From a virus (taxonomy: Duplodnaviria > Caudoviricetes), in IMG/VR virus record IMGVR_UViG_3300027679_000366, positions 1 to 64,000 of that record: DNA of 64,000 nt, one strand, 5' to 3'. The notes under the pieces are model-generated. The model had not been told where the DNA came from. It saw nothing but the letters and a program-made list of their open reading frames with translations, and made no database searches. Positions 10,371 through 64,000 of the stretch are shown here, piece after piece. Position 1 is the first letter of the stretch. Every line of letters starts with the position of its first letter. Position numbers and translations under genes: made by a program.

Positions 10371-12713
10371 ATGAACATTACAGTAATTAAAAGAAACGGA
10401 CAAAAAGAGCCGTTGACAATCGATAAATGGCAAGCGCAGGTAGCAAAAGTTTGCCAAGGCATTGCAGATGTTAGCCAATCGATGATTGAAATCAAGGCTC
10501 AATTACATTTTTATGATGGCATAACAACTAAAGAAATTGACGGTATCACACTGCGAGCTATAGTTGACTTGATCGATGTGGAACAAAATCCAGACGTTGG
10601 ACATGTCAACTATCAATACGTAGCAGGCAAGCAACGGCTGAGTATGTTACGCAAAGACGTGTACGGCAGTTATACAGTTCCACACTTGTATGAAATTGTT
10701 AAGAAGAATGTGGCTACTGGCTTGTACACTAACGAACTGCTGGAATGGTATACTGAAGAAGACTGGAACCGGATGGAAGACATGCTGGATCACGAAAAAG
10801 ATGAACAGTATGGCTATGCGGCTATTGAGCAGTTGATTGAAAAATATCTTGTTAAAAACCGTGCAACAAAACAAACATATGAGACACCGCAGATCAGATA
10901 TATGATAGCGGCTGCAACTGTGTTTCACAAAGAAGAACCCAACAGCGCAAGGATGCGTTACATAAAGGAATATTACAATGCGGCTTCAGACGGTTTATTT
11001 ACTCTCGCTACTCCTGTTCTTGCTGGCCTTGGCACTCCCACTAAGCAGTTCAGTAGTTGTGTACTCATTCGCAGTGATGATGATCTTGACTCCATTTTTG
11101 CTAGTGGCGAAATGATGGCCAAGTATGCCAGCAAACGTGCTGGCATCGGTTTAGAGATCGGACGACTACGTCCCTTGGGCAGTCCCATCCGTGGTGGTGA
11201 GATCATGCACACAGGTATGATACCTTTCCTGAAAAAATGGTTCGGTGATTTGCGTTCATGTAGTCAAGGGGGTATCCGCAATGCTAGTGCTACTGTATTC
11301 TATCCTATTTGGCATCATCAGTTTGATGACCTTATTGTGCTTAAGAACAACCAAGGCACAGAAGAAACCCGAGTCCGTCATATGGATTATGGGGTTGTGC
11401 TTAGTGCTTTCTTCTGGAGACGATTTAAAAACAAACAAGACATAACATTCTTTGATCCCAACGAAGTGCCGGACCTGTATGAAGCATTTTATCAAAATAC
11501 TGAACTGTTTGAAGAGCTGTATGTAAAATACGAAAAACGCAAAGACTTGCGTACCAAGACGATGAATGCCGAAGAAGTATTCAAAAGCGGAATACTAAAA
11601 GAACGCACTGATACTGGTCGCATCTATCTAGTGTTCATTGACAATGTAATGAAGCAGGGTCCGTTTGATCCTGAATACCATACCATCTACCAGAGTAACT
11701 TATGCTGTGAAATACTTTTACCGACAAAATCATTTAAAAGACTTGACGATGCAGAAGGACGTATCGCGCTCTGCACACTTGGCAGTATCAACTGGGGAGC
11801 TTTCAGGAATCCCGAAGATATGCGCCGTGCTTGCCGTATTCTACACCGTAGCCTCAATAATATACTTGATTATCAAGACTTCCTAAGTATCCAAAGTAAA
11901 CTAAGTAATGACGAGATTCGTCCGTTGGGTATTGGCATTACTAATTTAGCATACTGGCATGCCAAGCGTGGACTCAAGTATGGGGAGAAGGATGCACTAC
12001 AAGATGTAAAAAGTTGGATGGAACATCAGGCCTTTTACTTGACAGAAGCCAGCGTTGAGCTGGCAAAAGAACGTGGTGCGTGTGAAGGTAGCAGTCAAAC
12101 ACGCTATGGAAAAGGCGTATTTCCGTGGGAACTCCGTGCCAACGGATCTAATGAACTGGCAAACTTTGCTCCTGAACTTGATTGGGAAACACTGCGCGGT
12201 CAGATGAAAGAACACGGTGTACGTAATGCTACACAGATGGCAGTTGCACCAGTTGAAAGTTCAAGTGTGGTTATTAACAGCACTAATGGCATTGAAATGC
12301 CTATGAGTTTGATCAGTGTTAAAGAATCGAAAGCTGGATCGTTTGTACAGGTTGTTCCAGAATATCACAAACTAAAGAACAAGTATCAATTGATGTGGGA
12401 CCAGAAAGACTGCACTGGCTATCTAAAAACAGCAAGTGTGATTGCGGCTTATGTGGATCAAAGTATCAGCACAAACACATTTTATAATCCTGCACACTTT
12501 CCAGGACGTAAAGTTCCAACCACATTGATTGCCAAGAACTTGATGCAAGCTCAGTTATGGGGATTGAAAACCTTTTACTACAGCTTGATTAACAAAGCAG
12601 GCAGTAAGGCAGTGGAAGAACCTACTCCGGAACAAACACAAATTAATGGTGTACAAGTAAACGGCTATCATATTGAAGAGTTAGAAGACGACTGTGAGAG
12701 TTGCAAGCTATGA
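10371..12713 (+). CDS. nrdA: Class Ia ribonucleotide reductase alpha subunit with ATP cone
   Basis: VIKRNG ATP cone, KQFSSC, QSNLCCEI, LKTFYY, terminal CESCKL. Confidence 0.97.
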   Translation: MNITVIKRNGQKEPLTIDKWQAQVAKVCQGIADVSQSMIEIKAQLHFYDGITTKEIDGITLRAIVDLIDVEQNPDVGHVNYQYVAGKQRLSMLRKDVYGSYTVPHLYEIVKKNVATGLYTNELLEWYTEEDWNRMEDMLDHEKDEQYGYAAIEQLIEKYLVKNRATKQTYETPQIRYMIAAATVFHKEEPNSARMRYIKEYYNAASDGLFTLATPVLAGLGTPTKQFSSCVLIRSDDDLDSIFASGEMMAKYASKRAGIGLEIGRLRPLGSPIRGGEIMHTGMIPFLKKWFGDLRSCSQGGIRNASATVFYPIWHHQFDDLIVLKNNQGTEETRVRHMDYGVVLSAFFWRRFKNKQDITFFDPNEVPDLYEAFYQNTELFEELYVKYEKRKDLRTKTMNAEEVFKSGILKERTDTGRIYLVFIDNVMKQGPFDPEYHTIYQSNLCCEILLPTKSFKRLDDAEGRIALCTLGSINWGAFRNPEDMRRACRILHRSLNNILDYQDFLSIQSKLSNDEIRPLGIGITNLAYWHAKRGLKYGEKDALQDVKSWMEHQAFYLTEASVELAKERGACEGSSQTRYGKGVFPWELRANGSNELANFAPELDWETLRGQMKEHGVRNATQMAVAPVESSSVVINSTNGIEMPMSLISVKESKAGSFVQVVPEYHKLKNKYQLMWDQKDCTGYLKTASVIAAYVDQSISTNTFYNPAHFPGRKVPTTLIAKNLMQAQLWGLKTFYYSLINKAGSKAVEEPTPEQTQINGVQVNGYHIEELEDDCESCKL

Positions 12714-13261
12714 GTTATAGTTTTATTAGACAATTCATTATGGAAGGCAAGCCGGCTTCTTTAAAAATATTGCCGTTGCCTTACGGTGTAAACGATCTGG
12801 CGCCGGCTATCTCCAAAGCCACAATAGATTATCATTACGAGCATCTAGCCAAAGGATATGCCAAGCGTTTCAATGCAGGCGAAGGCGATCCAGATTTTAA
12901 CGAAGCTGGTGCGTTCTTACACAACGTCCTATGGCAACAATATCAAGAGCCAAAAGACACTAATGAACCAACTGGCGCAGTGGCAGAACTTATTGTTAAA
13001 CATTATAAAACTTTTGCCAAGTTCAAAGATGAATTTGAAAAAGTAGCAATGGCAGTGCAAGGCAGTGGCTGGGTTTACCTGGCCAAGGACGGCAAGATCA
13101 AAACCATTGTGAATCATGAGATCAAGAAAGACATTGTGGTATTAGTTGACTGGTGGGAACATGCATGGGCACTGGACTATCAATCAGACAAGAAAGGTTA
13201 TTTGAAGAATCAATGGAAAATTATGAATTGGGACAAGATAAATGCTAGAAACATGTTGTGA
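12710..13261 (+). CDS. sod: Fe/Mn superoxide dismutase (arm A only)
   Basis: LPLPY...L.P.IS, YH, LHN, QGSGW, DWWEHAW; all four metal ligands present. Confidence 0.9.
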   Translation: MSYSFIRQFIMEGKPASLKILPLPYGVNDLAPAISKATIDYHYEHLAKGYAKRFNAGEGDPDFNEAGAFLHNVLWQQYQEPKDTNEPTGAVAELIVKHYKTFAKFKDEFEKVAMAVQGSGWVYLAKDGKIKTIVNHEIKKDIVVLVDWWEHAWALDYQSDKKGYLKNQWKIMNWDKINARNML

Positions 13262-16890: not shown

Positions 16891-17277
16891 ATGGCATACA
16901 GCGATAAGGTAATCGACCACTACGAAAATCCAAGGAACGTTGGATCATTCCCAAAAGATGATCCTGACATTGGCACGGGTATGGTCGGTGCGCCCGCTTG
17001 TGGCGATGTAATGAAACTACAGATAAAGGTAGATCATGATACAGGTATTATTACAGATGCAAAATTTAAAACGTATGGCTGTGGATCGGCTATCGCAAGT
17101 TCGAGCCTCGTTACAGAATGGCTGAAAGGCAAAACACTTGACGAAGCAGGAACAATCGAAAACTCCAAAATTGCCGAAGAACTAGCACTGCCTCCAGTCA
17201 AGATACATTGTTCAATACTAGCAGAAGATGCTATCAAAGCGGCTGTGCATGATTACCGTAACCGACACAGCGTATAA
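16891..17277 (+). CDS. iscU: Fe-S cluster scaffold IscU
   Basis: DHYENPRNVG, GAPACGD, YGCGSA, LPPVKIHC. Confidence 0.97.
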   Translation: MAYSDKVIDHYENPRNVGSFPKDDPDIGTGMVGAPACGDVMKLQIKVDHDTGIITDAKFKTYGCGSAIASSSLVTEWLKGKTLDEAGTIENSKIAEELALPPVKIHCSILAEDAIKAAVHDYRNRHSV

Positions 17278-17575
17278 AAAAATCAAACTGAATTTAGAAC
17301 GCCGGGGCAAAGGTGTTGGTATTCGTTTAGGTGTTCGTACTACTGGATGCAGTGGACTGGCATACACTATCGAATATGTGGACGAGTATACCGCAGAAGC
17401 AGGGGTAACCAATTATGCTCAAAAAGACTTTGTTGTGCTAGTAGATGCCAAAAGTCTAGCATATTTAAATGGCATCACAATGGATTGGGTCCGCAATGGA
17501 CTCAATGAAGGTTTTGACTTTCAAAATCCAAATGAACGCGACCGTTGCGGTTGCGGCGAGAGTTTCAGAGTTTAA
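17249..17575 (+). CDS. iscA: A-type Fe-S carrier IscA
   Basis: TGCSGLAY and CGCGESF. Confidence 0.96.
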   Translation: MITVTDTAYKKIKLNLERRGKGVGIRLGVRTTGCSGLAYTIEYVDEYTAEAGVTNYAQKDFVVLVDAKSLAYLNGITMDWVRNGLNEGFDFQNPNERDRCGCGESFRV

Positions 17576-22843: not shown

Positions 22844-22898
22844 TGTAGTGCGCCGTAAGGGCCTACATATTCTTGCTTAATTAAAGGAGAACAATATG
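22844..22898 (+). promoter_or_regulatory. ROSE-like RNA thermometer of dnaK
   Basis: 5' hairpin, then TTCTTGCTT pairing with AAGGAGAA and leaving a bulged G. Confidence 0.7.
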
Positions 22899-24806
22899 AG
22901 CAAAATCATCGGTATCGATTTAGGTACAACAAATAGCTGTGTAGCAATCCTAGAAAACGGAGTTGCCAAAGTAATTGAAAATAGCGAAGGTGCTAGAACA
23001 ACACCATCAATCGTGGCTTACACCAAAGGCGAGATTCTCGTTGGTGCTACAGCTAAACGACAAGCAGTAACAAACCCAAAAAATACAATCTACGCCAGCA
23101 AGCGCCTTATTGGCCGCAAGTTTAGCGAGAAAGAAGTACAGAAAGACATTGGTCTAATGCCTTACGGTATTGTCCAAGCAGACAACGGTGACGCATGGAT
23201 TGAAGCCAATGGCGAGAAATTGGCTCCACAACAAGTGTCAGCTGAAGTACTTCGCAAAATGAAAAAGACTGCTGAAGACTATTTAGGTTATGAAGTAACG
23301 CAGGCAGTTATTACTGTACCAGCTTACTTTAACGACAGTCAGCGTCAAGCAACCAAAGATGCAGGACGTATTGCCGGCTTGGAAGTACTGCGTATTATCA
23401 ACGAACCAACTGCGGCCGCACTGGCATACGGTGTAGACAAACAAGACAAGAAGGATCGCAAGATTGCAGTATACGACTTGGGTGGTGGTACATTTGATAT
23501 CAGTATTATTGAAATTGCCAACATTGACGGCGACAAACAAATTGAAGTGTTATCAACAAACGGCGACACATTCCTTGGTGGTGAAGACTTCGATCAAGCC
23601 ATTATGGATCATTTGGTTGCAGTTTTTAAGAAAGAGTCTGGCATTGACTTGAAGAAAGATATGCTTGCCCTACAACGTTTGAAAGACTCAGCTGAAAAGG
23701 CCAAGATTGAATTGTCCAGTGCGGCCAGTACAGATGTTAACTTGCCATACATCACAGCAGACGCAAGTGGCCCTAAGCATTTGAACGTTAAATTAACTCG
23801 TGCTAAGTTTGAACAAATGGTCGAAGACTTGATTACTCGTTCAATTGAACCGTGTAAGACAGCCATGTCAGATGCTAATGTCACTGCCGCAGACATCGAC
23901 GAAGTTATCCTTGTTGGTGGACAAACACGTATGCCCAAAGTACAAGAAGCAGTTGAGAAACTGTTTGGCAAGGCTCCACGCAAAGACGTTAACCCAGACG
24001 AAGCAGTGGCCGCTGGTGCCGCCATCCAGGGTGCTGTGTTGGCCGGCGACAAGACAGATGTGCTGTTGCTAGACGTTACACCATTGAGTTTGGGTATTGA
24101 AACAATGGGTGGAGTGTTTACCAAAGTTATTCAAAAGAACACAACTATCCCAACCAAAGCTAGCCAAACGTTCAGTACTGCTGAAGACAATCAACCAGCT
24201 GTAACTATCAAAGTTGGTCAAGGCGAACGTGAACTATTCAAGTTTAATAAGATACTGGGCGAATTCAATCTCGACGGCATTGCCCCAGCACCACGTGGCA
24301 TGCCACAAGTTGAAGTTACCTTTGACATTGATGCCAATGGTATCATGCATATCAGTGCTAAAGATAAAGGCACTGGTAAGGAAAATAAGATTACAATCAA
24401 ATCCGATAGCGGATTGACGGAAGCTGAAATCCAACGCATGGTACAAGAAGCTGAACAAAACGCAGAGTCTGATAAGAAAGCCAAAGAGCTCATTGAAGCA
24501 CGTAATCAAGCTGATGGTGCCACACACAGCTTCAAGAAAGACTTTGAAGAAGTTAAAGAACAGTTGACTGAAGAAGAAAAGACAGCCGTTGAAACTGCAC
24601 TTAAAGGTGTAGACGATGCAGTAGTTGGAGAAGATCCAGAAGCTATTCAAAAATCAGTCCAAGCAGTTTTCGAAGCAGGCAAACCTGTATTTGAAAAGAA
24701 GCAGGCCGCTGAGGCCGCAAAGAGTGCCGCACCAGCTGACCAGCCTGCCGAAGGGCAAACAGTGGATGCGAGCTTCACAGAAGTTGACACACAGACAGCA
24801 AAGTAA
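22896..24806 (+). CDS. dnaK: Hsp70 chaperone DnaK
   Basis: [32 protein letters not shown]; full length. Confidence 0.98.
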
Positions 24807-25351: not shown

Positions 25352-25654
25352 ATGGCAGGCACTGATATCCAACTAGACGAGAAAATTAAGGTCACTGTAC
25401 AAGAACCTAAACGTTGGAAAGTCATAGTACTTAATGACGACGCAACTCCTATGGATTTTGTAGTTGGCGTACTTGTTGAAATCTTCAAGCATACAGACAC
25501 AACTGCTAGAGATATAATGATCACTGTACACGAGCAAGGCGCTGGCATTGCAGGTGTATACAGTTTTGAAATTGCAGAAGCCAAAGCAGTTGAATCAACT
25601 CAACTTGCTAGGTCTAACGGATTTCCGCTACAGATAAAATTGGAAGAAGAATGA
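25352..25654 (+). CDS. clpS: Clp protease adaptor ClpS
   Basis: LNDDATPMDFV, VHEQG, EIAEAK. Confidence 0.93.
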   Translation: MAGTDIQLDEKIKVTVQEPKRWKVIVLNDDATPMDFVVGVLVEIFKHTDTTARDIMITVHEQGAGIAGVYSFEIAEAKAVESTQLARSNGFPLQIKLEEE

Positions 25655-26196
25655 GCTTAAAAGACCTAACATGGGAACATCACAAGTACGCTGAAACACG
25701 CCCGTTTGTTAAGGTATTGTTTTCAGGTAAGATTACTCCAGAAGCATACGCTACATATCTTTATAATCAGCACAAGTGTTATGACTTGTTAGAAGCTATG
25801 GCCATGATGCATGGCCTAATGAATGACTATCCTGCAATACGCAGAGCTCCTGCCATTCATGCAGACTTTTTAGAACTATGGACTGATAAGAAAAAACTAC
25901 CAAATCAAGTGCCATCGGTACAGGCGTATCACGACCATTTACTATCTATCAAAGACGATCCTAAAAAGATTCTAGCACACTTGTATGTTAGACACTTTGG
26001 AGATTTGAGTGGTGGACAGATGATTGCCAAGCGTGTTCCAGGCAGTGGAAAATATTATCAGTTCGACGGCGACACAACAGAAATTAAAAACATCCTACGT
26101 GCCAAACTAGATGACAGTCTAGCAGAAGAAGCGGCTGTGTGCTTTAAGTTTGCGGCTGACATGTTTGACGACTTGGAAAAGGCTGTCAATGAGTAA
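25651..26196 (+). CDS. hemO: Heme oxygenase (HemO/HO1-like)
   Basis: LKDLTWEHH..AE proximal His; AHLYVRHFGDLSGGQ. Confidence 0.92.
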   Translation: MSLKDLTWEHHKYAETRPFVKVLFSGKITPEAYATYLYNQHKCYDLLEAMAMMHGLMNDYPAIRRAPAIHADFLELWTDKKKLPNQVPSVQAYHDHLLSIKDDPKKILAHLYVRHFGDLSGGQMIAKRVPGSGKYYQFDGDTTEIKNILRAKLDDSLAEEAAVCFKFAADMFDDLEKAVNE

Positions 26197-26869
26197 AGTC
26201 TGGGATACGCTAATAGGTATACAGCAGTTACTAGAAGAAAGTTTTGATGCTACTGGGAAGGAAACCTTTGAGCCAGGCATGGATCGTTTCAATCAGCCCG
26301 GTTGGGTTAACAGAGTGTGGACTAGCGAATCCTATCGTAGAGCACACGTTGATGTTGTAGATGCCCGTGAGTCAAAAGGACTTTGGATGATGCACTGTTG
26401 CATATTTCCACATACACACAATCCAGCACCAATATACGGATTTGACGTTATAGCTGGTAAGAATAAGATTACTGGATGCTTTCATGATTACTCAAAAGCC
26501 GGAGATGCTGGCCATCCAATGATGGCTTGGTTCCACGACGAAGTAGCCAAACTGGAATGGCGCAGAGAACGTGCGCTACCTGAATGGGCCACTAACATAT
26601 TCAGCGGCAGTATGGTGGCCGCGGCCAATGTACAAGATGAAGAAGAACTGGAGCAGATTACAAATCTAGCACGTACCACAGTTGCTCACTATCTAAGCAC
26701 AGTAGCAGAAACTAACAATACTGCTGAAAACACTACAGAAGCACAAAACTACTACGCACAGAATCAGAAATGTAACCCTCATACACCACGTGTAATGGTT
26801 AGTTTGGGACTAAGTGAGGCGGATGTACAGCATTTCATACAGGAATGCCTGTTCCCTGAAATAGTATAA
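26189..26869 (+). CDS. pcyX: Ferredoxin-dependent bilin reductase, PcyX/PcyA group
   Basis: RRAHVD, MHCCIFP, PIYGFDV, LPEWA.IFS, QN.Y..NQ..NPHT; adjacent to heme oxygenase. Confidence 0.85.
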   Translation: MSKVWDTLIGIQQLLEESFDATGKETFEPGMDRFNQPGWVNRVWTSESYRRAHVDVVDARESKGLWMMHCCIFPHTHNPAPIYGFDVIAGKNKITGCFHDYSKAGDAGHPMMAWFHDEVAKLEWRRERALPEWATNIFSGSMVAAANVQDEEELEQITNLARTTVAHYLSTVAETNNTAENTTEAQNYYAQNQKCNPHTPRVMVSLGLSEADVQHFIQECLFPEIV

Positions 26870-26879
26870 ATATTACACT

Positions 26880-28556
26880 ATGCGTGTAATTGACATTTTA
26901 ACTGAATCCGTTTTAACAGAAGCTGGCTTAACAGCTAGAGACTTTTATGAGCGCGGTAGGCTGGATAATTTTATTAAGAAATTAGTTGCCAAAGAACCTT
27001 TTTTTACTGTGGACGGCGAACAGATTGAAATTCCTGCTACCGGTTCCGAAATAAGCTGGCTCAAAACTCAACTCAAAACAAACTTTGATTCTAAAGATCC
27101 TCTAGCAAGAGCAGTACAGACTCTTAATATTTTTCCAAAGATCGGAGGAATCAGACTAAGTTCCTTGGCCAAAACTAAAGAATTTGGGGGAACATTCAGT
27201 GTGAACTCCAGTGGCAAGATGGATACTAGCAAAGCCAATATAGGGCCAACTGTTGAAGCTTTGAAAGCATTTGCTATATTTGCAAGATTGGTAATACGAA
27301 ATAAGGCAACACTCACTGCTCAAGACGTTATGAAAGTTGCACAGATGGCTCAAAAGAATTCTAGTATAGTTTACCTAACAAATGAAAAAACGGGAAAACC
27401 CTCTAAAAATCCTACCACTCAGGTGACAGTTGTAAGAAAAGTACCTGACAAGAATGGAACTGTAAAAGATGAATTTACATTAAATGTATCTTTAAGCACA
27501 CCTTCTTTCGTTCGTGCAATAAATGTAACAGAAAAAGACAAGGCAGCTTGGGGACATTTAAACGGTGTTGTGAAATATATCAATTCGGAAGGCGACTTGG
27601 CAAAATATTCTAGATACTTTGCTAATAACAACAAAAAAGATCCTGTTAAAATTGCAGTGATTGGTATTGAGTTAGGCAAAGTTGATATCTCATCATCATA
27701 TACTGATCCGGTCAGTGGAGAAGAACGTCCTCTAGAAAACTTAACAATGAGTATCAAGAGCGAAGATGCTCCTTGGTTCCATCAAACATCCGGTGGAAAA
27801 TTAACCGGTATATATCAAATGTATCAAGCAATAGGTTTGACAGATGCTGAAGTAGACGAAGACATGGTCACTGCTGGCTACCAAGAAACAGGAAAGAAGA
27901 ATTCCCGTGCGCAATTCCAACAGACTGTGAAGGCTGTTGAAGCCATATATGATCTTGCTTTTGACCGACTGGGTTCAGCAATGGCCAAGTTAAACGATAA
28001 AGGCGAAGCTGACTATATTCATAACTTTTTAAACACGTTAAAACACAATATTGCAGGCGATGACAAATTAGTCTATGTAAAATTTAATGCACGTGGAGCA
28101 TACTCAAAATTAAAACCCAACATGTTATGGCATCTATCTGAAGTCATCGAACTGGGCGTTAATCAAGGCACAGGCCAACGCCGCGCAATCTACTGGATTG
28201 ACCAAAAAACAGGTAAAACACTGATGGAAGTGAGGATGTTAATAAATGCTCCAAATCACAGAATTACCAATCAATTTAATTTAGGCAAAGACTTCTTTTC
28301 GTTAATTAAAGAATCTGAAAAGATTTACAATGTTAACAGTACCAAAGCGGCACCTGCTACTACCCCTACAACGGACAAGCAAGTGACCCAAGTAGAACCA
28401 ACTGAACCTATCGCTAAAAAGGCAGTTCCAGCAAATATTAAAAAATCAGCGGCAACTGCTGTGCCAACCGCTAACATTGATACCAATCCCAATCAATCAT
28501 TAAACCGTGCTGTTCCTAGCACAAATCCAAACGACAATATTCCGTTCGCAACATAA
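26880..28556 (+). CDS. Large late protein, possible PD-(D/E)XK-fold nuclease
   Basis: TATAAATA promoter; MRVIDILTES; E-helix / KVDI / MSIK pattern mirrored in 31133-32980. Confidence 0.5.
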   Translation: MRVIDILTESVLTEAGLTARDFYERGRLDNFIKKLVAKEPFFTVDGEQIEIPATGSEISWLKTQLKTNFDSKDPLARAVQTLNIFPKIGGIRLSSLAKTKEFGGTFSVNSSGKMDTSKANIGPTVEALKAFAIFARLVIRNKATLTAQDVMKVAQMAQKNSSIVYLTNEKTGKPSKNPTTQVTVVRKVPDKNGTVKDEFTLNVSLSTPSFVRAINVTEKDKAAWGHLNGVVKYINSEGDLAKYSRYFANNNKKDPVKIAVIGIELGKVDISSSYTDPVSGEERPLENLTMSIKSEDAPWFHQTSGGKLTGIYQMYQAIGLTDAEVDEDMVTAGYQETGKKNSRAQFQQTVKAVEAIYDLAFDRLGSAMAKLNDKGEADYIHNFLNTLKHNIAGDDKLVYVKFNARGAYSKLKPNMLWHLSEVIELGVNQGTGQRRAIYWIDQKTGKTLMEVRMLINAPNHRITNQFNLGKDFFSLIKESEKIYNVNSTKAAPATTPTTDKQVTQVEPTEPIAKKAVPANIKKSAATAVPTANIDTNPNQSLNRAVPSTNPNDNIPFAT

Positions 28557-28619
28557 TCCACGTACTTAGAATACCTTATTAGTAGTAAATACTAATAACG
28601 ATATACCGGGAGCGAAACC

Positions 28620-29234
28620 GTGGATCCAATCACGATAGGTCTGGCATTTGCCGCCGCCCAATCAGCAGTTAGTCATATAAAGCAAGCCGTAGCTCTGGGT
28701 AAGGACATCAACAGTCTAGTAGGGCAATTCAGCAAATTCTTTGAAAGTTCAGATTCTATACATCGTGAACGAACAAAGTTAAAAGCCAAAGCTAACCTAC
28801 TGGGCAAAACTGATGCTGAGTTGGGGCACGAAGCCCTACAAATTGCCATGCACAGTGATGCCCTACGTCAAGCAGAGCGCGATCTCAAAGACATGATTCT
28901 TTGGCAATTGGGTAAACCGCAGATTTGGGAACAAATGATTGCCGAGCGCACCAGACTATTCAAAGCCCGTGCAGAAGCCCAACGTGCAGAAGAAGAACGT
29001 GAACTAGCACACAAGAAAAAAATGGCTGATACGTTTATTTTTGGCATGTATTTCCTAGCAGGGTCAGTGATTGTATTTGCATTTGCCATGGGCGGTGTTG
29101 GCATTTACGGCCAGATGGAAGAAAAACGAATTTATGAAGAAAAGGTTGTCAAGAGAAATCTAGTTATTCGTCAACAACAAAAAGAACGCGAAGCTCGTGA
29201 AAAGAAAGAACGCGAAGATTATGCTAAAAATTAA
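28620..29234 (+). CDS. MDP-family coiled-coil membrane protein
   Basis: GTG start after GGGAG; amphipathic N-helix, coiled coil, one TM, basic tail. Confidence 0.75.
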   Translation: MDPITIGLAFAAAQSAVSHIKQAVALGKDINSLVGQFSKFFESSDSIHRERTKLKAKANLLGKTDAELGHEALQIAMHSDALRQAERDLKDMILWQLGKPQIWEQMIAERTRLFKARAEAQRAEEERELAHKKKMADTFIFGMYFLAGSVIVFAFAMGGVGIYGQMEEKRIYEEKVVKRNLVIRQQQKEREAREKKEREDYAKN

Positions 29235-29245
29235 CAAAGGAACGT

Positions 29246-29359
29246 ATGTACTTCAACATTATTATCACATTCAATGATCTGCTGTTCTTATTGTCAATGA
29301 CTCCATTAGTGGCTATATTTTGTGTCATGTTTAAAGATTGGCTCAAAGATAGAAAATGA
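29246..29359 (+). CDS. 37-aa membrane peptide
   Basis: MYFNIIITFNDLLFLLSMTPLVAIFCVMFKDWLKDRK; AAGGA RBS; ATGA-coupled to next ORF. Confidence 0.6.
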   Translation: MYFNIIITFNDLLFLLSMTPLVAIFCVMFKDWLKDRK

Positions 29360-29517
29360 TCATGTACGAATGGATATTGATGCTAGCCCTTGCACAAGAA
29401 CCAGTTAAGAAATGGCCAGAGTGGGAGTGTGTGCGTTGGACATGGACCGGTGACGTTTACAATCGCACAGTGATATGTTTAGAATGGCGCAAGAGAGAAA
29501 ATAGATGGAAACCCTAA
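29356..29517 (+). CDS. 53-aa putative exported peptide with Cys pair
   Basis: CVRWTWTGDVYNRTVICLEW; paralog of next ORF. Confidence 0.7.
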   Translation: MIMYEWILMLALAQEPVKKWPEWECVRWTWTGDVYNRTVICLEWRKRENRWKP

Positions 29518-29750
29518 ACAGAATAATTGTGGTCCTGGCATTATCGACTCTGTGTGTTTCTACGATAGTGTCAAGTTCACCCATGTACGGCGGTGATCGT
29601 CCCAATGTAGCTAGAGAATTACCCAGTCGAGAACGTGAAGTAACGCTCAATCAGGGTGTTGCCCAATGTGTTAGAACTGCTTGGATTGGTGATGTCAGCA
29701 ATAGAACATTGATTTGTGTTGAATATCGCTATCGGAAAGAGGTCAAGTAA
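29505..29750 (+). CDS. Putative exported peptide with Cys pair
   Basis: Signal-peptide-like N-terminus; CVRTAWIGDVSNRTLICVEY. Confidence 0.7.
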   Translation: METLNRIIVVLALSTLCVSTIVSSSPMYGGDRPNVARELPSREREVTLNQGVAQCVRTAWIGDVSNRTLICVEYRYRKEVK

Positions 29751-30532
29751 TGGATCCCTTAACACTCTTTGCACTGGCCAATGCCGCAGTGTCCGCAGTC
29801 AAGGCTGGCTGTAAACTTTATAAAGATATCAAAGGTGCGGCGGGTGATGTCAAGGATGTACTCAAAGATCTTGATGCACAGTTCCAAAAACTTCACCCGG
29901 CTGAAAAACCAGCCACAGTAGAGCAACGTAATCAATACATTCGTACAAAAAACGAAGTTGTCGAGTTAAACAAAAAGGCTAACTCGGGCGAGCATACCGG
30001 TGTTTACACAGAGATTGGCAATCATCTTGGCGCATATTACGATAACTTAAACAAGTGTATGGCAATCTTTGCTGAAGAAGAACGTCGCAGTAAAACACAA
30101 GTTTATACTGGAGATGACAGCCTAGGTAAACGTGCCTTACAACGTGTGTTGATGCGCAAGCAATTGGAACAAATGGGCACTGAACTGCGTGAGATAATGG
30201 TGTATCAAAGCCCTAAAGAACTGGGTGCGCTTTATACAGAAGTAGAAGAGATGATGAGAGAAATGGGTAAGGAACAAAAAGTTCTCATCATCAAGCAAAT
30301 GAAAATTCAGGAGGTACAGGATCGTAGACGTGCGGCCCGTATGAAACAGCTGAGAGAAGAGTTGATCATCGGTGTAGCAATCATGATCATCATCATTATC
30401 ATGGGCGGAGTGTTCATGTGGGTAGCACATGATCGCCAGCAAAAATACCCACAATACGGCAACGAGTTATTTCCCAAGTCTGAAAAACAGCGACAATCTG
30501 AAGCAGAGCCTAAAGTATATATAGGACGCTAG
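29750..30532 (+). CDS. MDP-family coiled-coil membrane protein
   Basis: MDPLTLFALANAAVSAVK; same architecture as 28620-29234. Confidence 0.75.
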   Translation: MDPLTLFALANAAVSAVKAGCKLYKDIKGAAGDVKDVLKDLDAQFQKLHPAEKPATVEQRNQYIRTKNEVVELNKKANSGEHTGVYTEIGNHLGAYYDNLNKCMAIFAEEERRSKTQVYTGDDSLGKRALQRVLMRKQLEQMGTELREIMVYQSPKELGALYTEVEEMMREMGKEQKVLIIKQMKIQEVQDRRRAARMKQLREELIIGVAIMIIIIIMGGVFMWVAHDRQQKYPQYGNELFPKSEKQRQSEAEPKVYIGR

Positions 30533-30539
30533 GTGTTAA

Positions 30540-30620
30540 TTACTTCAATTGCCATTCCATCCATATCAAGAACGCAGTGACTAATAATGTTAATATCAGA
30601 ACAATTTGTGGCAATCTCAT
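30540..30620 (-). CDS. 26-aa hydrophobic peptide
   Basis: MRLPQIVLILTLLVTAFLIWMEWQLK; ATGA overlap with 30617-31048. Confidence 0.5.
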   Translation of the reverse strand: MRLPQIVLILTLLVTAFLIWMEWQLK

Positions 30621-31048
30621 ATTTTGTATAGTTTAAAAAAGTAAGTAACTAATGTGCCAGCTACAAAACACCAGCACAACACATCAATTTGTTTTTGTCG
30701 GTCGCGATCCATTGCAGATAATTCAGCTTTATATTCTTTTTCTATAACAGCTTTTTCAGCTTCTACTTTGATCCACGCATCCTTGCCGTATTTTTGAATA
30801 GTTTCAGCCTTTAGTCTAGCTACATCTCGCTCGTACTTCATCTTAGTCTCAAATTTTTCAAGAGCTCTATACTCAAGAGTTGATTTTCGATGTTGCTCTG
30901 CTAGTTTAGATTTTATACGGGATTCATGCTCGCGCTGAACGGTAGCTTCCATATCAGCCTGTTGGCTTGATACAACTGCTCCTAATTCCTTGCCTGCACT
31001 TTGCGCAGATTTAAGGGTAGTTGTGGCGGACTTAATTCCGTCTAACAT
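30617..31048 (-). CDS. Coiled-coil protein with C-terminal TM
   Basis: Start MLDGIK after GGGAGCGAAA; KYGKDAW..VE.E motif; C-terminal hydrophobic helix. Confidence 0.7.
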   Translation of the reverse strand: MLDGIKSATTTLKSAQSAGKELGAVVSSQQADMEATVQREHESRIKSKLAEQHRKSTLEYRALEKFETKMKYERDVARLKAETIQKYGKDAWIKVEAEKAVIEKEYKAELSAMDRDRQKQIDVLCWCFVAGTLVTYFFKLYKI

Positions 31049-31132
31049 TTTTCGCTCCCGAGGTTCCTCACCAGTATTTACTATGAGGTGGGGAATCATT
31101 AAATGACTGCTTTTTCTTGTTCTAAAACAAAC

Positions 31133-32980
31133 TTAGTGTGAGTATTTTGCTAAATGTAACATGCGTTGTAATTCACTTACATGTTCATCTTTGTGGGGTT
31201 GCCATTTGTGTTGTTCTGCAACCTTTTCTTCATCGTTAGCTAGTTGCGATTGCTGTGAAACGTCTGCAGGTTGTTGTGATGTAGGAACAGTTGGCATTGG
31301 TGCTTGTGTAGTAGTTGCTTTAACTGCGGCATTTGGCTCTGTTTTTGTTTTTGCAGGGCTAGTTGCCGTTGGTTGGTCAAATACTGGTTTAGCCCGTGTA
31401 TCAAACGTTGATGCAGTATCTGCACCTTCTTGTTGAGTTATGTCAGTAAGTTTCTTCAACAAACCGCCCATTTCAACTACGTTGCGTGTAGTTTTGTCTT
31501 GGTTATATGTACGTAGTTGTACAAACATACTATCACCATTATTAATGCGTTTTCCTAAATCAGTTACAGCAAAACCGTAAATCTTTAAGATACAAGTTTT
31601 TTCAGAGATTGTTAATTCGTGTGTTAGATTGTAATTTTTTAGTGCTTCATGAAATTCCGGGCCAAACGATAATTCTTTATATGCTTCTTTAGCTGAAGGG
31701 CTAATAACTACTACACGAACATCTTGTCCTAGAGTTGCATGATGTACCACTCCGGTTGTCACTTCTTTAACAAAATCATACTCATTAGCACTACCGGACA
31801 ATAATTTCTTTAGTTCTTTATCCATGTACTTATAGGCCGCAGGAATAGCAATTCTAGAATTATAATCGCGTGCCGCTTTAGCGATAGGTTCTCTTTCTTT
31901 AGAATATAAGTATCCTTCTGGAGCAGGATCACCTTTCTTCCAATCCGGAAACAATAGATTACCAGTTTCGTCTGTTGGAGGATTCTTTGGTGAAAACTGC
32001 AACGGCACCATCTTAAACTTTTTCTTTATTTCTTCGGGTAAGTGTATGCCTAATACACTGTTTAAGAATGTATCAATTTTATCAAACTCATAACCAGCAT
32101 ATCCGCCAATATGCTTAACTGTGCTTGTTTTAATACTTAATAGTTTTTCTTTAGTTCCATTAAGAGCAATCCATAAGTCTGCTTTTGTACTATGTTGGGC
32201 TTCGTGTGTTGCGCCATCAGCTGTAACTGAGATTACATCTTTAGTATCGGCATTTTTAATTTTTTCTAATGCAGATTTAACAGCACTTGATTGATTAACG
32301 TATGTTGCGCAATCACTAAACATTTTGTATACTTGTTTTGAATTTTCATATTTTAAAAATTCTTGAGGATTACGTGCAGACATTATAAATGCTTTAAAGT
32401 CTTCACCTGCCAGTGCAATATTAAGTTCTATAGCTTTACCAAATGCTGTGCTTTTAATACTTGTACCTTCAATGCGTTGTGCTGTACCAAATACATCCTT
32501 GGCTTCTAATTCAGCACCCTCTTTTTCAAATTTTGTTAGTACAGCAGATGCCATAATAGCTTCTGCAACGTTGCCGTCATTCCACCATTTACTGTAAGTT
32601 TTCTCACCTGGTTTTTCGCCTACTTTTTGCTTGATAGCGCCAGTCTTTTCAATTTGGTTAACTCGATATTCGCCACCGCCTTTAGCTGGTAATAAAACTG
32701 TTTTGATTTGTTCTAGCTGTTCGCCATCAGGTGACTCTAATCTGTCGCGGCCAGTTGGATTCCAAATAGCTTCTAATCTGTCTGCGGCCTCTGGGGAAAA
32801 TTTAATAGTCTTTACTAACTTAGGACTTGTTTTAGTCTTATCAAGAGTAACTTGTATCTCGTCGCCTGCTCGTATTGAGTTGATTAAGTTTCGATAATAG
32901 TTCGAATTACCCGGTCTAGCGATAGATACGGGCTGGAGTGTTTCTTCAGAAACCAGGTATTTAAAATCATTAAATCTCAT
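31133..32980 (-). CDS. Large late protein, possible PD-(D/E)XK-fold nuclease
   Basis: Start MRFNDF after TAAATA; GNVAEA / KADLWI / LSIK; syntenic with 26880-28556. Confidence 0.5.
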   Translation of the reverse strand: MRFNDFKYLVSEETLQPVSIARPGNSNYYRNLINSIRAGDEIQVTLDKTKTSPKLVKTIKFSPEAADRLEAIWNPTGRDRLESPDGEQLEQIKTVLLPAKGGGEYRVNQIEKTGAIKQKVGEKPGEKTYSKWWNDGNVAEAIMASAVLTKFEKEGAELEAKDVFGTAQRIEGTSIKSTAFGKAIELNIALAGEDFKAFIMSARNPQEFLKYENSKQVYKMFSDCATYVNQSSAVKSALEKIKNADTKDVISVTADGATHEAQHSTKADLWIALNGTKEKLLSIKTSTVKHIGGYAGYEFDKIDTFLNSVLGIHLPEEIKKKFKMVPLQFSPKNPPTDETGNLLFPDWKKGDPAPEGYLYSKEREPIAKAARDYNSRIAIPAAYKYMDKELKKLLSGSANEYDFVKEVTTGVVHHATLGQDVRVVVISPSAKEAYKELSFGPEFHEALKNYNLTHELTISEKTCILKIYGFAVTDLGKRINNGDSMFVQLRTYNQDKTTRNVVEMGGLLKKLTDITQQEGADTASTFDTRAKPVFDQPTATSPAKTKTEPNAAVKATTTQAPMPTVPTSQQPADVSQQSQLANDEEKVAEQHKWQPHKDEHVSELQRMLHLAKYSH

Positions 32981-32990
32981 AGTAGAGTAT

Positions 32991-33671
32991 TTATCGGATT
33001 TCTGGGAACAAACATTCCTGAATGAAGTGCTGTACATCGTCCTCACTTAGCCCCAAACTAACCATCACACGCGGTGTATGGGGGTTGCACTTCTGATTTT
33101 GTGCATAATAGTTCTGTGCTAGTGTTGTATCTTCAGCTGTGTTGTTTGTTTCCGCTACTGTGCTTAGATAGTGTGCTACTGTAGTTTTAGCTAGATTTGT
33201 AATTTGTTCTAGTTCTGCTTCATCTTGTACGTTACCCGCGGCCACCATACTACCACTGAATATGTTAGTAGCCCATTCAGGCAAAGCACGTTCTCTGCGC
33301 CATTCTAATTTGGCTACTTCATCATGGAACCACGCCATCATTGGATGGTCAGCATCGCCTGCTTTTGAGTAATCGTGAAAACAACCGGTAATCTTGTTCT
33401 TACCAGCTATAACATCAAATCCATAGATAGGTGCAGGGTTATGAGTATGTGGAAAGATGCAACAATGCATCATCCATAATCCTTTAGAGTCTCTTGCGTC
33501 TACAACATCAACGTGAGCGCGGCGGTAACTATCAGAAGTCCATACGCGATTAATCCACCCTGGTTGATTAAAGCGATCCATACCCGGTTCAAATACTTCT
33601 GTGCCAGTGTTATCAAAACTGTTCTCCAATAGATGTTGTATTTCTATTAACGTATCCCATACCTTGCTCAT
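32991..33671 (-). CDS. pcyX: Ferredoxin-dependent bilin reductase, PcyX/PcyA group
   Basis: Close homolog of 26189-26869. Confidence 0.85.
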   Translation of the reverse strand: MSKVWDTLIEIQHLLENSFDNTGTEVFEPGMDRFNQPGWINRVWTSDSYRRAHVDVVDARDSKGLWMMHCCIFPHTHNPAPIYGFDVIAGKNKITGCFHDYSKAGDADHPMMAWFHDEVAKLEWRRERALPEWATNIFSGSMVAAGNVQDEAELEQITNLAKTTVAHYLSTVAETNNTAEDTTLAQNYYAQNQKCNPHTPRVMVSLGLSEDDVQHFIQECLFPEIR

Positions 33672-34219
33672 ACATCTCCGTACAACTTAACAATAGGCAT
33701 CATGTCTTGAAAGAAACGTTTAGCAAAGTCAAAACACACTTTAGCTTCGTCTGCCATGTCATCGCTGATGCGTTCTCGGATAGCGGCTTTTAACACATCT
33801 GGATTTTCAAATTGATAATACTTACCCGAACCCGGAACACGTTTAGCAATCATTTGTCCGCCTGCAAGGTCGCCCATGTGCCGTACATATATGTGTGCCA
33901 TTAATTTCTTAGGATCATCTTTAATACTTAAAATATACTTGGTATATTCTTCAACTGCTGGTGTCATAGCCGGCATGTCTTCATGCGGCCACAATTCAAT
34001 AAAGTCCGCTAAGATAGCAGGTGCTCTACGAATATCAGGCAGACCGTGTAACAACTGATGCGGCATCGCACATACTTCTAACACTTCATACATTGGGTGT
34101 TGGTTCTTTAAGTATGTTGCATATAGCTCTGGATTAATGTTTCCAGAAAACAATATTTTTACAAAGGGCTGAGTCTCAGCGTCTCTGTGTGCATCGTGTG
34201 TAAGGTCTTTTAAGCTCAT
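33668..34219 (-). CDS. hemO: Heme oxygenase
   Basis: LTHDAH..AE; AHIYVRHMGDLAGGQ. Confidence 0.92.
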   Translation of the reverse strand: MSLKDLTHDAHRDAETQPFVKILFSGNINPELYATYLKNQHPMYEVLEVCAMPHQLLHGLPDIRRAPAILADFIELWPHEDMPAMTPAVEEYTKYILSIKDDPKKLMAHIYVRHMGDLAGGQMIAKRVPGSGKYYQFENPDVLKAAIRERISDDMADEAKVCFDFAKRFFQDMMPIVKLYGDV

Positions 34220-35061: not shown

Positions 35062-36963
35062 TTACTTTTTTTCTGTAGAGTCAACTTCTGTGAAGCTTGC
35101 ATCTACTGTTTGTTCACCGGTTTGCGGAGCCTGTTGTTTGGCTTGCTCTGCGGCTTGTTTCTTTTCAAACACAGGAGTTGCTGATTCAAAAAGTGTCTGT
35201 ACAGATTTTGTGATTGCTTCCACATCATCACCTGCATGGGCTGTGTCCATTGCTGTGAGTGCTTCTTCAATCTTACTCTTCTCTTCATCAGTTAATTGGT
35301 CTTTAACTTCGTCAAAGTCCTTTTGGAACTGATGACGTTGAGCATCGGCTTGATTACGAGCTTCAATAAGCTCACGAGCCTTTTTATCAGACTCTGCATT
35401 TTCTTCAGCTTCACGAACCATACGTTCAATTTCAGCTTCAGTTAATCCAGAATCAGATTTGATAGTAATCTTATTTTCTTTGCCAGTGTTTTTATCTTTG
35501 GCACTTACATTAAGAATACCGTTTGCGTCAATGTCTAGTGTAACTTCAATTTGCGGTGTGCCACGCGGTGCTGGAGCAATACCTTCTAAATTAAACTCAC
35601 CTAACGATTTGTTGTACTTAAACAATTCACGTTCGCCCTGCGCCACTTTGATAGTAACTGCTGGCTGATTGTCGTCCGCTGTTGAAAATGTTTGACTATG
35701 CTTAGTTGGAATAGTTGTATTCTTTTTAATCAACTTGGTCATTACACCACCCATTGTTTCAATACCTAGTGTCAATGGAGTAACGTCTAGTAATAGAACA
35801 TCTGTCTTATCGCCAGCTAGCACAGCACCTTGTATGGCGGCGCCTGCGGCAACTGCTTCGTCTGGATTAACATCCTTACGTGGTGCTTTACCAAAGAACT
35901 TTTCAACTGCTTCTTGTACTTTAGGCATACGTGTTTGGCCACCAACAAGAATAATTTCGTCAATGTCAGCATTAGTAACACCTGCGTCTTTCATAGCAAT
36001 TTTACATGGCTCAATTGAACGTTTGATTAATTCTTCAACCATTGATTCAAACTTAGCACGATTAATAGTTACATTCATGTGCTTGGGACCACTAGCATCT
36101 GCGGTAATGTATGGTAAGTTAACGGCTGTGCTAGTTGTGCTAGACAATTCAATCTTAGCTTTTTCAGCGGATTCTTTCAAACGCTGTAGAGCCAACATGT
36201 CTTGTTTAAGATCAATGCCGTTATCTTTCTTAAATTCTGCAACTAGGTAATCCATTAACACTTGGTCAAAGTCTTCACCGCCCAAGAATGTATCACCGTT
36301 TGTTGATAGTACTTCAATTTGTTTGTCGCCATCGATGTTGGCAATTTCAATAATGGAGATATCAAATGTACCACCACCTAAGTCGTAAACTGCAATCTTG
36401 CGATCCTTCTTGTCTGTCTTATCAACCCCATAACTCAATGCCGCCGCTGTTGGCTCATTGATAATACGCAACACTTCTAAGCCAGCAATGCGTCCAGCAT
36501 CTTTCGTTGCTTGACGTTGGCTATCATTAAAATATGCCGGAACAGTAATAACGGCTTGTGTTACTTCGTGGCCCAAATAGTCTTCAGCAGTCTTTTTCAT
36601 TTTGCGAAGTACTTCAGCAGACACCTGTTGTGGTGCTAGCTTTTCGCCGTTAGCCTCAATCCACGCATCGCCATTGTCAGCCTTGACAATAGTATATGGC
36701 ATTAAGTCTATATCTTTTTGTACTGCGGCTTCGTCAAACTTGCGACCAATAAGGCGCTTGCTGGCGTAGATTGTATTTTTGGGGTTTGTGACTGCTTGTC
36801 GTTTTGCTGTTGCACCTACTAGGATGTCGTCCTTTGTATATGCAATGATTGATGGCGTTGTTCTTGCGCCCTCGCTGTTTTCAATTACTTTAGCAACTCC
36901 GTTTTCTAGGACTGCTACACAGCTATTTGTTGTACCTAAATCGATACCGATGATTTTGCTCAT
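35062..36963 (-). CDS. dnaK: Hsp70 chaperone DnaK
   Basis: All Hsp70 signatures present. Confidence 0.98.
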
Positions 36964-47905: not shown

Positions 47906-48232
47906 CTATACTCTAAAACTTTCACCACAGCCGCAACGGTCACGCTCGTTAGGATTGACAAAATCAAAGCCTTCATTAAGTCCATTACGTACCCAATCCA
48001 TAGTCAACCCGTCTAGATAGGCTAGACTTTTGGCATCTACTAGCACAACAAACCCGTCGTGTGCAAAATTAGTCACTCCTACTTCGGCTTCGTAACTATC
48101 TACATATTCTAACACATAAGCTAATCCAGAGCAACCGGTAGTTTTCACACCAATCCTAATACCAACGCCCTTACCACGTTTAGCTAATGTTTGTTTAATT
48201 CGGTTACTGGCTGTGTCGGTTACGGTAATCAT
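47906..48232 (-). CDS. iscA: IscA
   Basis: TGCSGLAY, CGCGESF. Confidence 0.96.
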   Translation of the reverse strand: MITVTDTASNRIKQTLAKRGKGVGIRIGVKTTGCSGLAYVLEYVDSYEAEVGVTNFAHDGFVVLVDAKSLAYLDGLTMDWVRNGLNEGFDFVNPNERDRCGCGESFRV

Positions 48233-48590
48233 TCACTGCCGCCTTGATAGCATCTTCTGCCAATATACTACAATGTATTTTAACCGGAGGAAGAGCCAGT
48301 TCTTCTGCTATTTCTTTGTTTTTGATTGTTCCGGCTTCGTCGAGGGTTTTTCCCTTGAGCCATTCTGTAACGAGGCTCGAACTCGCGATAGCCGATCCGC
48401 AGCCATACGTTTTAAATTTTGCATCTGTAATAATACCTGTATCATCGTCTACCTTTATCTGTAGTTTCATTACATCACCGCAAGCAGGGGCGCCTACCAT
48501 GCCTGTGCCTACGGTAGGATCATCTTTAGCAAATGAGCCTACATTTCTTGGATTTTCATAATGGTCAATAACTTTTTCGGAATAACTCAT
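48204..48590 (-). CDS. iscU: IscU
   Basis: GAPACGD, LPPVKIHC. Confidence 0.97.
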   Translation of the reverse strand: MSYSEKVIDHYENPRNVGSFAKDDPTVGTGMVGAPACGDVMKLQIKVDDDTGIITDAKFKTYGCGSAIASSSLVTEWLKGKTLDEAGTIKNKEIAEELALPPVKIHCSILAEDAIKAAVNDYRNRHSQ

Positions 48591-63708: not shown

Positions 63709-63751
63709 TATTTGTATCCTCTAACAATATTTATGCTATAAATACGTTACT

Positions 63752-64000
63752 ATGATAAACATCGAACCATTCGAAAAACTAATTACAGATCTTAAAGAAA
63801 ACGGCAAATACCGTGTATTCAACGATATTCTGCGTGAAAATGGCAAGTTCCCACAGGCTATTTGGTATGGCCCTTACAACATTAAGAACATAACCAACTG
63901 GTGTAGCAACGACTACTTGGGCATGGGACAAAGCAAGGTAGTACTAGATGCCATGCACACCGCATTAGACATGACTGGCGCCGGGTCAGGCGGCACACGA
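63752..64000 (+). CDS. hemA: 5-aminolevulinate synthase (ALAS), N-terminal part, truncated by window end
   Basis: Manual translation MINIEPFEKLITDLKENGKYRVFNDILRENGKFP...NWCSNDYLGMG...GAGSGGTR; TATAAATA upstream; not in the ORF track. Confidence 0.88.
   Translation, partial: MINIEPFEKLITDLKENGKYRVFNDILRENGKFPQAIWYGPYNIKNITNWCSNDYLGMGQSKVVLDAMHTALDMTGAGSGGTR

Follow-up and report, generated by a model that had tools for sequence, protein, structure and literature searches.

The stretch analyzed here (the window) comprises bases 1 to 64,000 of the IMG/VR virus record IMGVR_UViG_3300027679_000366 (Duplodnaviria; Caudoviricetes), a linear record of 85,853 bases with a CheckV completeness of 23%. 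At its right end an open reading frame (ORF) opens on the plus strand at position 63752 and is still open at its 3' side where the window stops at 64000, so that 83 residues can be read. In the parent record this gene, valaS, is complete (63752-64957) and intact, and encodes a protein of 401 residues (P0001). It is a lone plus-strand gene among minus-strand genes, diverging from g096 across a gap of 43 nucleotides and converging downstream with the genes of an epimerase and a kinase; heme oxygenase (hemO), ferredoxin-dependent bilin reductase (FDBR), IscU, IscA and superoxide dismutase (SOD) genes are placed elsewhere in the window (Table 1). 5-Aminolevulinate synthase (ALAS, EC 2.3.1.37) is an α-oxoamine synthase that depends on pyridoxal 5'-phosphate (PLP) and makes 5-aminolevulinate (5-ALA) out of glycine and succinyl-CoA, and is the first enzyme of heme synthesis. 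With a probability of roughly 0.9, the ORF at the window end is taken to be the beginning of a phage-encoded ALAS gene whose product is predicted to be catalytically competent.

The 83-residue fragment contains the three motifs that an earlier note, made from the sequence alone, had quoted for this ORF, namely G18-x-YRVF-xx-I-x-R-xx-G-x-FP34, WCSNDYLGMG (residues 50-59) and GAGSGGTR (residues 76-83). The fragment by itself matches the ALAS equivalog model TIGR01821 far beyond chance (E = 1.9e-26), with values of 1e-06 for BioF and 4.4e-06 for Kbl. On NCBIfam TIGR01821, for which the cut-off is 338.55, full-length P0001 reaches 565 bits. It remains under the cut-offs of the sister families, with 317.8 bits for Kbl (460), 315.7 for BioF (426.45) and at most 228.1 for three SPT models (at least 500). 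Pfam assigns the general Aminotran_1_2 domain only. The closest solved structures are the ALAS of Rhodopseudomonas palustris (7x98, 5e-127) and of Rhodobacter capsulatus (2bwn, 9e-124); after the bacterial ALAS structures come the human and yeast enzymes, and Kbl (3tqx) trails at 1.8e-59.

The AlphaFold2 model of P0001, obtained with an alignment of 51 sequences, has a mean predicted local distance difference test (pLDDT) value of 96.9 and a predicted template modeling (pTM) score of 0.93. A Foldseek comparison of this model with the PDB returned ALAS structures in all of the top 30 matches. The model superimposes on 2bwn with a TM score of 0.95-0.97 and a root mean square deviation (rmsd) of 1.1-1.3 Å at 51-52% identity; over 2bwn and 7x98 together the ranges are 0.95-0.98 and 1.1-1.6 Å. 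Fold and PLP-lysine motif are common to the α-oxoamine synthases, structures of Kbl, BioF and SPT also match the model (TM 0.91-0.94), and P0001 might in principle be one of these enzymes or an ALAS-like cyclising enzyme from secondary metabolism. This is nevertheless very improbable, because every Kbl, BioF and SPT cut-off is missed while that of ALAS is well exceeded, the identity to solved ALAS (51-52%) clearly differs from that to solved Kbl, BioF or SPT (27-33%), the protein is placed inside ALAS in the tree described below (in which SPT has no row), and no acyl-CoA ligase or amide synthase gene is found among the flanking genes scanned around valaS. Thus profile score, fold, residues and tree placement all agree with a genuine ALAS on a phage, as the earlier note had proposed, and of the groupings that it had named as refuting, that with BioF or Kbl is not seen, while for SPT the scores are under the cut-offs.

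A total of 302 IMG/VR stretches encode homologues of P0001, and the best 80 of these 302 (79-95% identical) were used as viral relatives; 78 of the 80 are full-length (396-406 residues), the remaining two being truncated at contig ends. To compare residues, the window protein was aligned with these 80 viral and 80 cellular homologues. In the R. capsulatus enzyme the PLP contacts are K248 (the Schiff base), H142, D214, H217, T245 and S/T277-278, and the substrate contacts are R374 for the glycine carboxylate and R21, T83 and K156 for succinyl-CoA. The PLP lysine, which the earlier note had wanted looked for in the remainder of the gene, is K248 of P0001, and together with the PLP-contact residues H141, D214, H217, T245, T277 and T278 it is present in 80/80 viral sequences. 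The substrate-contact positions R373, R21, T82 and K155 are likewise present in P0001 and invariant in the viral clade. The full invariant set of the viral sequences includes R21, D54, T82, R83, S136, D137, H141, S189, D214, H217, T245, K248, T277, T278 and R373, the sole exceptions to the invariance of catalytic positions being gaps in the sequences cut by contig ends. That valaS might be a decaying or inactive copy, for which only the lack of a Shine-Dalgarno (SD) sequence could be adduced, is hardly credible in view of these invariant positions, of the full length of 78 of 80 homologues (the other two being cut by contig ends) and of the short branches inside the viral clade; the ORF is intact over its 401 residues, and the pseudogene that the earlier note had allowed for is not what is found.

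P0001 shares with the HemA proteins of R. capsulatus (2bwn, 2bwo, 2bwp) and R. palustris (7x98) the fold, a length of about 400 residues, the PLP lysine, the contacts to the PLP ring and the substrate arginines. It differs from them in being viral, in its long separate branch, in having an Arg (R341) at the position of R. capsulatus His342, and in a C-terminal tail devoid of Cys. Across the 80 viral sequences the His342-equivalent is Arg in 50, Lys in 28, Leu in two and His in none, and 1 of 78 has a Cys among its last 12 residues. Of the 80 closest cellular ALAS, 67 likewise lack His at this position, and 19 have a Cys within the last 12 residues (61 have no C-terminal Cys). The loss of the heme site is thus no viral speciality, and viral AlaS is not set apart by the absence of His342 and Cys400, since these residues are also missing from most of the nearest cellular enzymes.

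In a maximum-likelihood tree of 88 rows the 80 viral loci were represented by 24 and the 80 cellular loci by 42; the other rows were the window protein, 18 cluster representatives (50% identity) and three outgroups (Salmonella Kbl, E. coli BioF and Acinetobacter BioF). One clade unites the window protein with all viral rows and one cluster representative. It has a Shimodaira-Hasegawa-like approximate likelihood ratio test (SH-aLRT) support of 100 and a stem length of 1.15, and no cellular sequence among those sampled is found in it. This clade falls inside ALAS, which splits from the three Kbl/BioF rows at SH-aLRT 97; the phylogeny suggested in the earlier note is thereby provided for BioF and Kbl. 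The nearest cellular ALAS are 51-58% identical and belong mostly to Alphaproteobacteria (Caulobacterales, Parvibaculales, Rhodospirillales and Hyphomicrobiales). When 1.84 billion cluster representatives (50%) were searched, the first match was at 76% identity and the following ones at 54% or less. Metagenomes contain thousands of near-identical proteins, named 5-aminolevulinate synthase by JGI, and the exact P0001 protein is found on 32 contigs. No valaS-like gene was seen when the GenBank phage collection, from which records close to the window may be absent, was searched with the full protein (tblastn): the 19 records matched are all 36.2% identical or less, the annotation under the match, where there is one, reads Kbl or BioF, and several of the records are bacterial contigs. 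One contig titled Leptospira interrogans has an ALAS that falls within Hyphomicrobium-like sequences of Alphaproteobacteria in the tree, and this contig is probably a contaminant of its assembly.

The record does look chimeric at 28.7-30.5 kb (see below), which might raise the question of whether valaS is cellular DNA joined to a phage by misassembly or mis-binning. Such an origin is most unlikely, given that both flanks of valaS are syntenic with other viral contigs, including a 356-kb record that is 96% complete, that the viral clade holds no sampled cellular sequence and the best cellular identity is 58%, and that the exact protein occurs on 32 contigs. The carrier of valaS is most likely a freshwater lineage of T4-like jumbo phages, because related contigs reach 356 kb (the 96%-complete record) and a T4-type Gp23 capsid gene is found in four of the five large relatives. 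By their labels, the sequencing runs containing DNA of the record come from freshwater or lake water, and one sample is a crustacean metagenome. The search of the five large relatives for pmoC (PF04896) gave no match, with a control that was silent everywhere, and so carries no information on the published link between pmoC and phages; NrdA, tried as a marker for the nearest isolates, matched more than 5000 records and was uninformative.

A phage ALAS, its association with ho1 and a pcyX-like gene, its activity and the idea of tRNA sparing are already known from work published in 2020 and 2024. In Chen et al. 2020 (bioRxiv 10.1101/2020.02.13.942896), large freshwater phages are listed with ALAS alongside ho1 and a gene resembling pcyX. 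The gene was named valaS by Wegner et al. 2024 (Nat Commun, PMC11480375), whose text, in the parts drawn on here, describes cassettes, broken cassettes and lone genes, and places viral AlaS in a cluster apart, about 55% identical to alphaproteobacterial ALAS, with the catalytic residues kept and His342/Cys400 lost. According to the same parts, vAlaS of phage CB_2 forms 5-ALA and rescues an E. coli strain auxotrophic for it, the K250A variant does not rescue the strain, and the FDBR of the freshwater CB_2 is a PcyA that makes phycocyanobilin and not phycoerythrobilin. A further literature search found the 2024 paper and its preprint and no other report. A viral takeover of the committed tetrapyrrole step is thus in print together with its biochemistry, and the present record adds a member and no new principle. 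What it adds is the extent of the clade (302 IMG/VR stretches), its probable residence in T4-like jumbo freshwater phages and a spacing from hemO to valaS fixed at 25-47 kb; modest new points are an SD-less TAAATA arrangement, a palindromic divergent control region, the probably chimeric contig and the weakness of the argument for escape from heme feedback.

As far as the published description goes, CB_2 vAlaS and P0001 are both phage-borne aquatic ALAS accompanied by hemO and FDBR as a 'broken cassette', both stand apart from bacterial ALAS and both lack the His342/Cys400 site; the PLP lysine of the CB_2 enzyme is numbered K250 and that of P0001 K248, a comparison made by description and not by sequence. 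The hemO-pcyA-alaS island of Bradyrhizobium sp. ORS278, as presented in PMC11480375, has the same three activities in one genome; there the three genes are adjacent and beside a phytochrome gene, whereas here valaS is 29.5 kb from hemO-FDBR and on the other strand. The Bradyrhizobium ALAS rows of the tree, which are of strains other than ORS278, are not near the viral clade. The marine pelagimyophage hemO-pcyX cassette (as cited in PMC11480375) resembles the present record in having hemO and FDBR genes that are adjacent and overlap, on a myovirus-type phage; the present record differs in belonging to a freshwater jumbo lineage and in that the PcyX label is not established for its FDBR.

Table 1. 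Position of valaS and of the other features discussed, numbered as in the window (which shares its numbering with the parent record)
Feature	Position	Strand	Basis or remark
Fe/Mn superoxide dismutase	12710..13261	+	PF02777, 78.6 bits; arm A only, no arm-B counterpart
IscU + IscA, arm-A copies	16891..17575	+	Pfam, over cut-offs
Heme oxygenase + FDBR, arm-A copies	25651..26869	+	59% / 93% amino acid identity to arm-B copies
Central segment g043-g047	28736..30518		Probably common to two related phage genomes; likely assembly crossover
FDBR, arm-B copy	32991..33671	-	PF05996, 46.2 bits, over cut-off
Heme oxygenase, arm-B copy	33668..34219	-	PF01126, 67.8 bits, over cut-off; 29.5 kb upstream of valaS
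IscA + IscU, arm-B copies	47906..48590	-	PF01521, 61.8 bits; PF01592, 183.9 bits
S-adenosylmethionine decarboxylase-like, 117 residues	61728..62081	-	PF02675, 1.1e-19; phrog_3125
g096, PA14/GLEYA-domain protein, 402 residues	62500..63708	-	Pfam GLEYA 7.1e-21, PA14 2.3e-09; divergent from valaS
Palindromic element TATTTA-N5-TAAATA	63728..63744	both	In the 43-nucleotide gap between divergent g096 and valaS
TATAAATA	63737..63744	+	Ends 7 nucleotides before the valaS ATG; TAAATA core is the conserved part
valaS, 5' part (residues 1-83)	63752..64000	+	TIGR01821, PDB ALAS matches, AlphaFold2 and Foldseek
NAD-dependent nucleotide-sugar epimerase + PfkB-type kinase	64926-66517 (record)	-	Downstream, convergent with valaS

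The hemO and FDBR genes are adjacent and overlapping. The FDBR copies score 76-82 bits (76.6 for the arm-B copy) on the PcyA equivalog, whose cut-off is 206, and their class, PcyX or PcyA, is not established by these profile scores. HemO is found in 13 of 50 related whole records, always in single copy, always on the strand opposite to valaS and 25.2-46.8 kb upstream of it. When contigs are sorted by their reach upstream of valaS, HemO is present in 13/14 of those reaching at least 32 kb and in 7/7 of those reaching at least 47 kb, and in 0/31 of those reaching less than 25 kb. This layout matches the published 'broken cassette'. The joint presence of hemO and valaS that the earlier note proposed to check is therefore seen in 13 of the 14 contigs of sufficient reach, but within a single syntenic lineage, and it shows no repeated coupling because one such lineage represents one evolutionary event.

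A closer inspection of the record as a whole showed a mirror structure, in which bases 1-26,869 (arm A) are repeated in diverged form (63-88% nucleotide identity) by bases 32,991-61,300 (arm B), with a center of about 6 kb between them (26880-32990). Synteny between the arms holds for each gene in turn, with amino acid identities of 36-97%, so that nrdA, nrdB, hemO, FDBR, IscU and IscA are each present twice, whereas relatives of the record carry one copy of hemO. The center goes with arm B: in the 356-kb relative, bases 28,620-31,060 and arm B form one collinear stretch. Contigs of independent runs bridge from the arm-A FDBR and g042 to 28,736, and from 30,732 through g048 and g049 to the arm-B FDBR; contigs from two runs end exactly at 28,736, and no contig spanning 28,736-30,732 is found among the 32 contig pieces listed, beyond which there are 586 others. 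Among 80 contigs with g047, FDBR/HemO lies to the left on the same strand in two, to the right on the opposite strand in another two, and on both sides in none. Contig depths for arm A, center and arm B are about 54:95:52 (X8), 12.5:17:7 (X10) and 29-37:54-98:12-15 (X13), which, as depths and not copy numbers, give a weak hint of two populations sharing the center. Between 21 and 36 kb some parts are covered by contigs of an RNA library (X15), which is no proof of transcription.

The record is thus probably a head-to-head assembly chimera of two related genomes, which would differ by an inversion beside a shared segment of about 1.8 kb; 1-28.7 kb would then come from genome A and 30.5-85.9 kb from genome B. 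An ancient inverted duplication is the less likely reading and was discarded as first choice because HemO is single-copy in 13/13 relatives having it and FDBR flanks g047 on both sides in 0/80 contigs. The convergent point at 30532/30617 was discarded as the join, since the same convergent arrangement is present in the 356-kb relative. The probable chimera matters for any count of auxiliary genes per genome taken from this contig, and it bears on the claim of the earlier note that ALAS, HemO, PcyX, IscU/IscA and SOD share one phage. That claim holds for hemO-FDBR and IscU-IscA, because one pair of each lies on the B side with valaS; the presence of SOD and valaS on one phage is not established, because the SOD is on the A side of the probable chimera and valaS on the B side, and the PcyX label is not established either. 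A search for Cu/Zn SOD found none.

The gap between g096 and valaS deserves a separate description, as the earlier note had read a perfect late promoter in front of the ALAS gene. The exact TATAAATA is there, beginning one base to the left of where that note had its feature start, and its distance of 7 nucleotides to the ATG leaves no room for an SD leader. As a T4-type late promoter, a gp55-dependent element with TATAAATA at -10, it is not conserved at this position: the exact 8-mer is found upstream of valaS in 3 of 78 relatives, and ATAAATA at that spacing in 2 of 78. In the window TATAAATA occurs seven times against 5.15 expected, a number reached in 27 of 100 shuffles, so it is not enriched, although all seven sites are in sense orientation 4-26 nucleotides upstream of a same-strand ORF start. 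What is conserved is the core, with TAAATA ending 5-9 nucleotides before the valaS ATG in 64/78 relatives and a bipartite TATTTA-N2-6-TAAATA in 60/78, the conserved element standing 6-7 nucleotides ahead of the ATG; an SD-like tetramer upstream of valaS is found in 0/78.

Of the hexamers within 45 nucleotides upstream of the ORFs of the record, TAAATA ranks second in enrichment (30/144 upstream regions against 2.26 expected), and two arrangements could be distinguished. In the first, which includes g096 and does agree with a T4-type late promoter with a leader, NATAAATA is placed 19-26 nucleotides before the ATG and is followed by an SD sequence. In the second, TAAATA is placed 4-8 nucleotides before the ATG without SD; it is shown by 14 of 144 ORFs including valaS (63752), for example those at 3199, 4074, 16891 and 26880 on the plus strand and at 57664 and 58487 on the minus strand, often in the form GTTAAATAC, and it is kept by homologous genes on both arms. 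The palindrome in the gap, unique in the 85,853-base record (shuffle mean 0.31), reads CATAAATA on the minus strand, 19 nucleotides before the ATG of g096 and followed by the SD sequence AGAGGA. Because TAAATA stands just before the ATG and no SD is present, the arrangement suggests that the valaS mRNA is leaderless, with transcription starting at or next to the AUG. More tentatively, and rather doubtfully, valaS may belong to a separate expression class of leaderless mRNAs in which TAAATA acts as a -10-like core, with a timing or translation unlike that of the late genes with NATAAATA plus SD, and the palindrome may also serve as the late promoter of g096, making the 43 nucleotides a bidirectional control region. 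The main text of Wegner et al. 2024 (PMC11480375), in a term search, contains none of 'leaderless', 'late gene', 'jumbo' or 'T4-like', and does not discuss native promoters, the start without SD or the T4-type capsid.

In the scenario proposed here, valaS would most likely supply the committed and normally tightly regulated tetrapyrrole precursor during infection, independently of host control. Host enzymes would complete the synthesis after the 5-ALA step, because no ALAD/hemB gene is found in the five large relatives (the control search being positive in 11 of 14 genomes). By analogy with the CB_2 homologue, for which activity has been demonstrated, P0001 is expected to be active, and its physiological role and timing are likewise presumed. 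Wegner et al. 2024, in the parts of PMC11480375 used here, propose both a tRNA-Glu-sparing bypass and a support of host ALAS, and call the role of hemO/FDBR enigmatic. Some considerations weigh against the scenario of a precursor supplied by the phage. The published argument of an escape from heme feedback appears weak for the clade of P0001, judging from the residues compared above; a bypass of the C5 route and a mere supplement to host ALAS both fit; and the SD-less arrangement could stand for weak or special translation instead of a leaderless mRNA.

The earlier note went further and suggested that valaS drives flux through heme and biliverdin to bilin by means of the phage HemO and FDBR, the bilin being a wanted product. 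The presence of valaS with one hemO in 13/14 contigs of enough reach (7/7 at 47 kb or more), the adjacency of FDBR to hemO in the record and the three-gene cassettes published for other phages and for Bradyrhizobium ORS278 (in parts of PMC11480375) would agree with it. On the other hand, 25-47 kb separate valaS from hemO, which is on the opposite strand and not co-transcribed with it, their co-occurrence in one syntenic lineage counts as one evolutionary event, and no bilin-binding partner was identified; moreover, the same parts of PMC11480375 report contigs with valaS alone and a co-expression of phage HemO and FDBR that left porphyrin accumulation unreduced. The 'pull' towards bilin is neither supported nor refuted by these data, and as an account of why the phage carries valaS it seems unlikely. 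A supply of 5-ALA to the pathway of the host is retained as the proposed role.

Several observations concern the neighboring genes and the two arms. The protein of g096 has its carbohydrate-binding PA14/GLEYA domain at the C-terminus and is a possible adhesin or fiber; its conservation among relatives is low (34-59% over parts). The S-adenosylmethionine decarboxylase-like gene, two genes from valaS, is an auxiliary gene of polyamine synthesis, and a gene for a small metalloprotease-like protein is also among the upstream neighbors. The slot after nrdA is occupied in arm A by the Fe/Mn SOD, with IscU-IscA 4 kb further, and in arm B directly by IscU-IscA without SOD. The gene g047 (29750-30532, plus strand, 260 residues) has no Pfam or PHROG match, is related to 503 IMG/VR stretches and behaves as a core gene in a variable neighborhood. 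A protein of 636 residues, encoded in both arms three genes upstream of hemO (22896-24806, plus strand; 35062-36963, minus strand), matches phrog_22485 end to end with 899.7 bits. The gene after FDBR differs between the arms, being g042 (26880-28556, plus strand, 558 residues) in one and g049 (31133-33037, minus strand, 634 residues) in the other, and the two are unrelated by BLASTP. No relative of g042 was found in IMG/VR, and the gene is covered at 99% identity by contigs of runs dated 2017 to 2025. The epimerase and PfkB-type kinase encoded downstream of valaS may act in sugar-nucleotide (heptose-like) metabolism.

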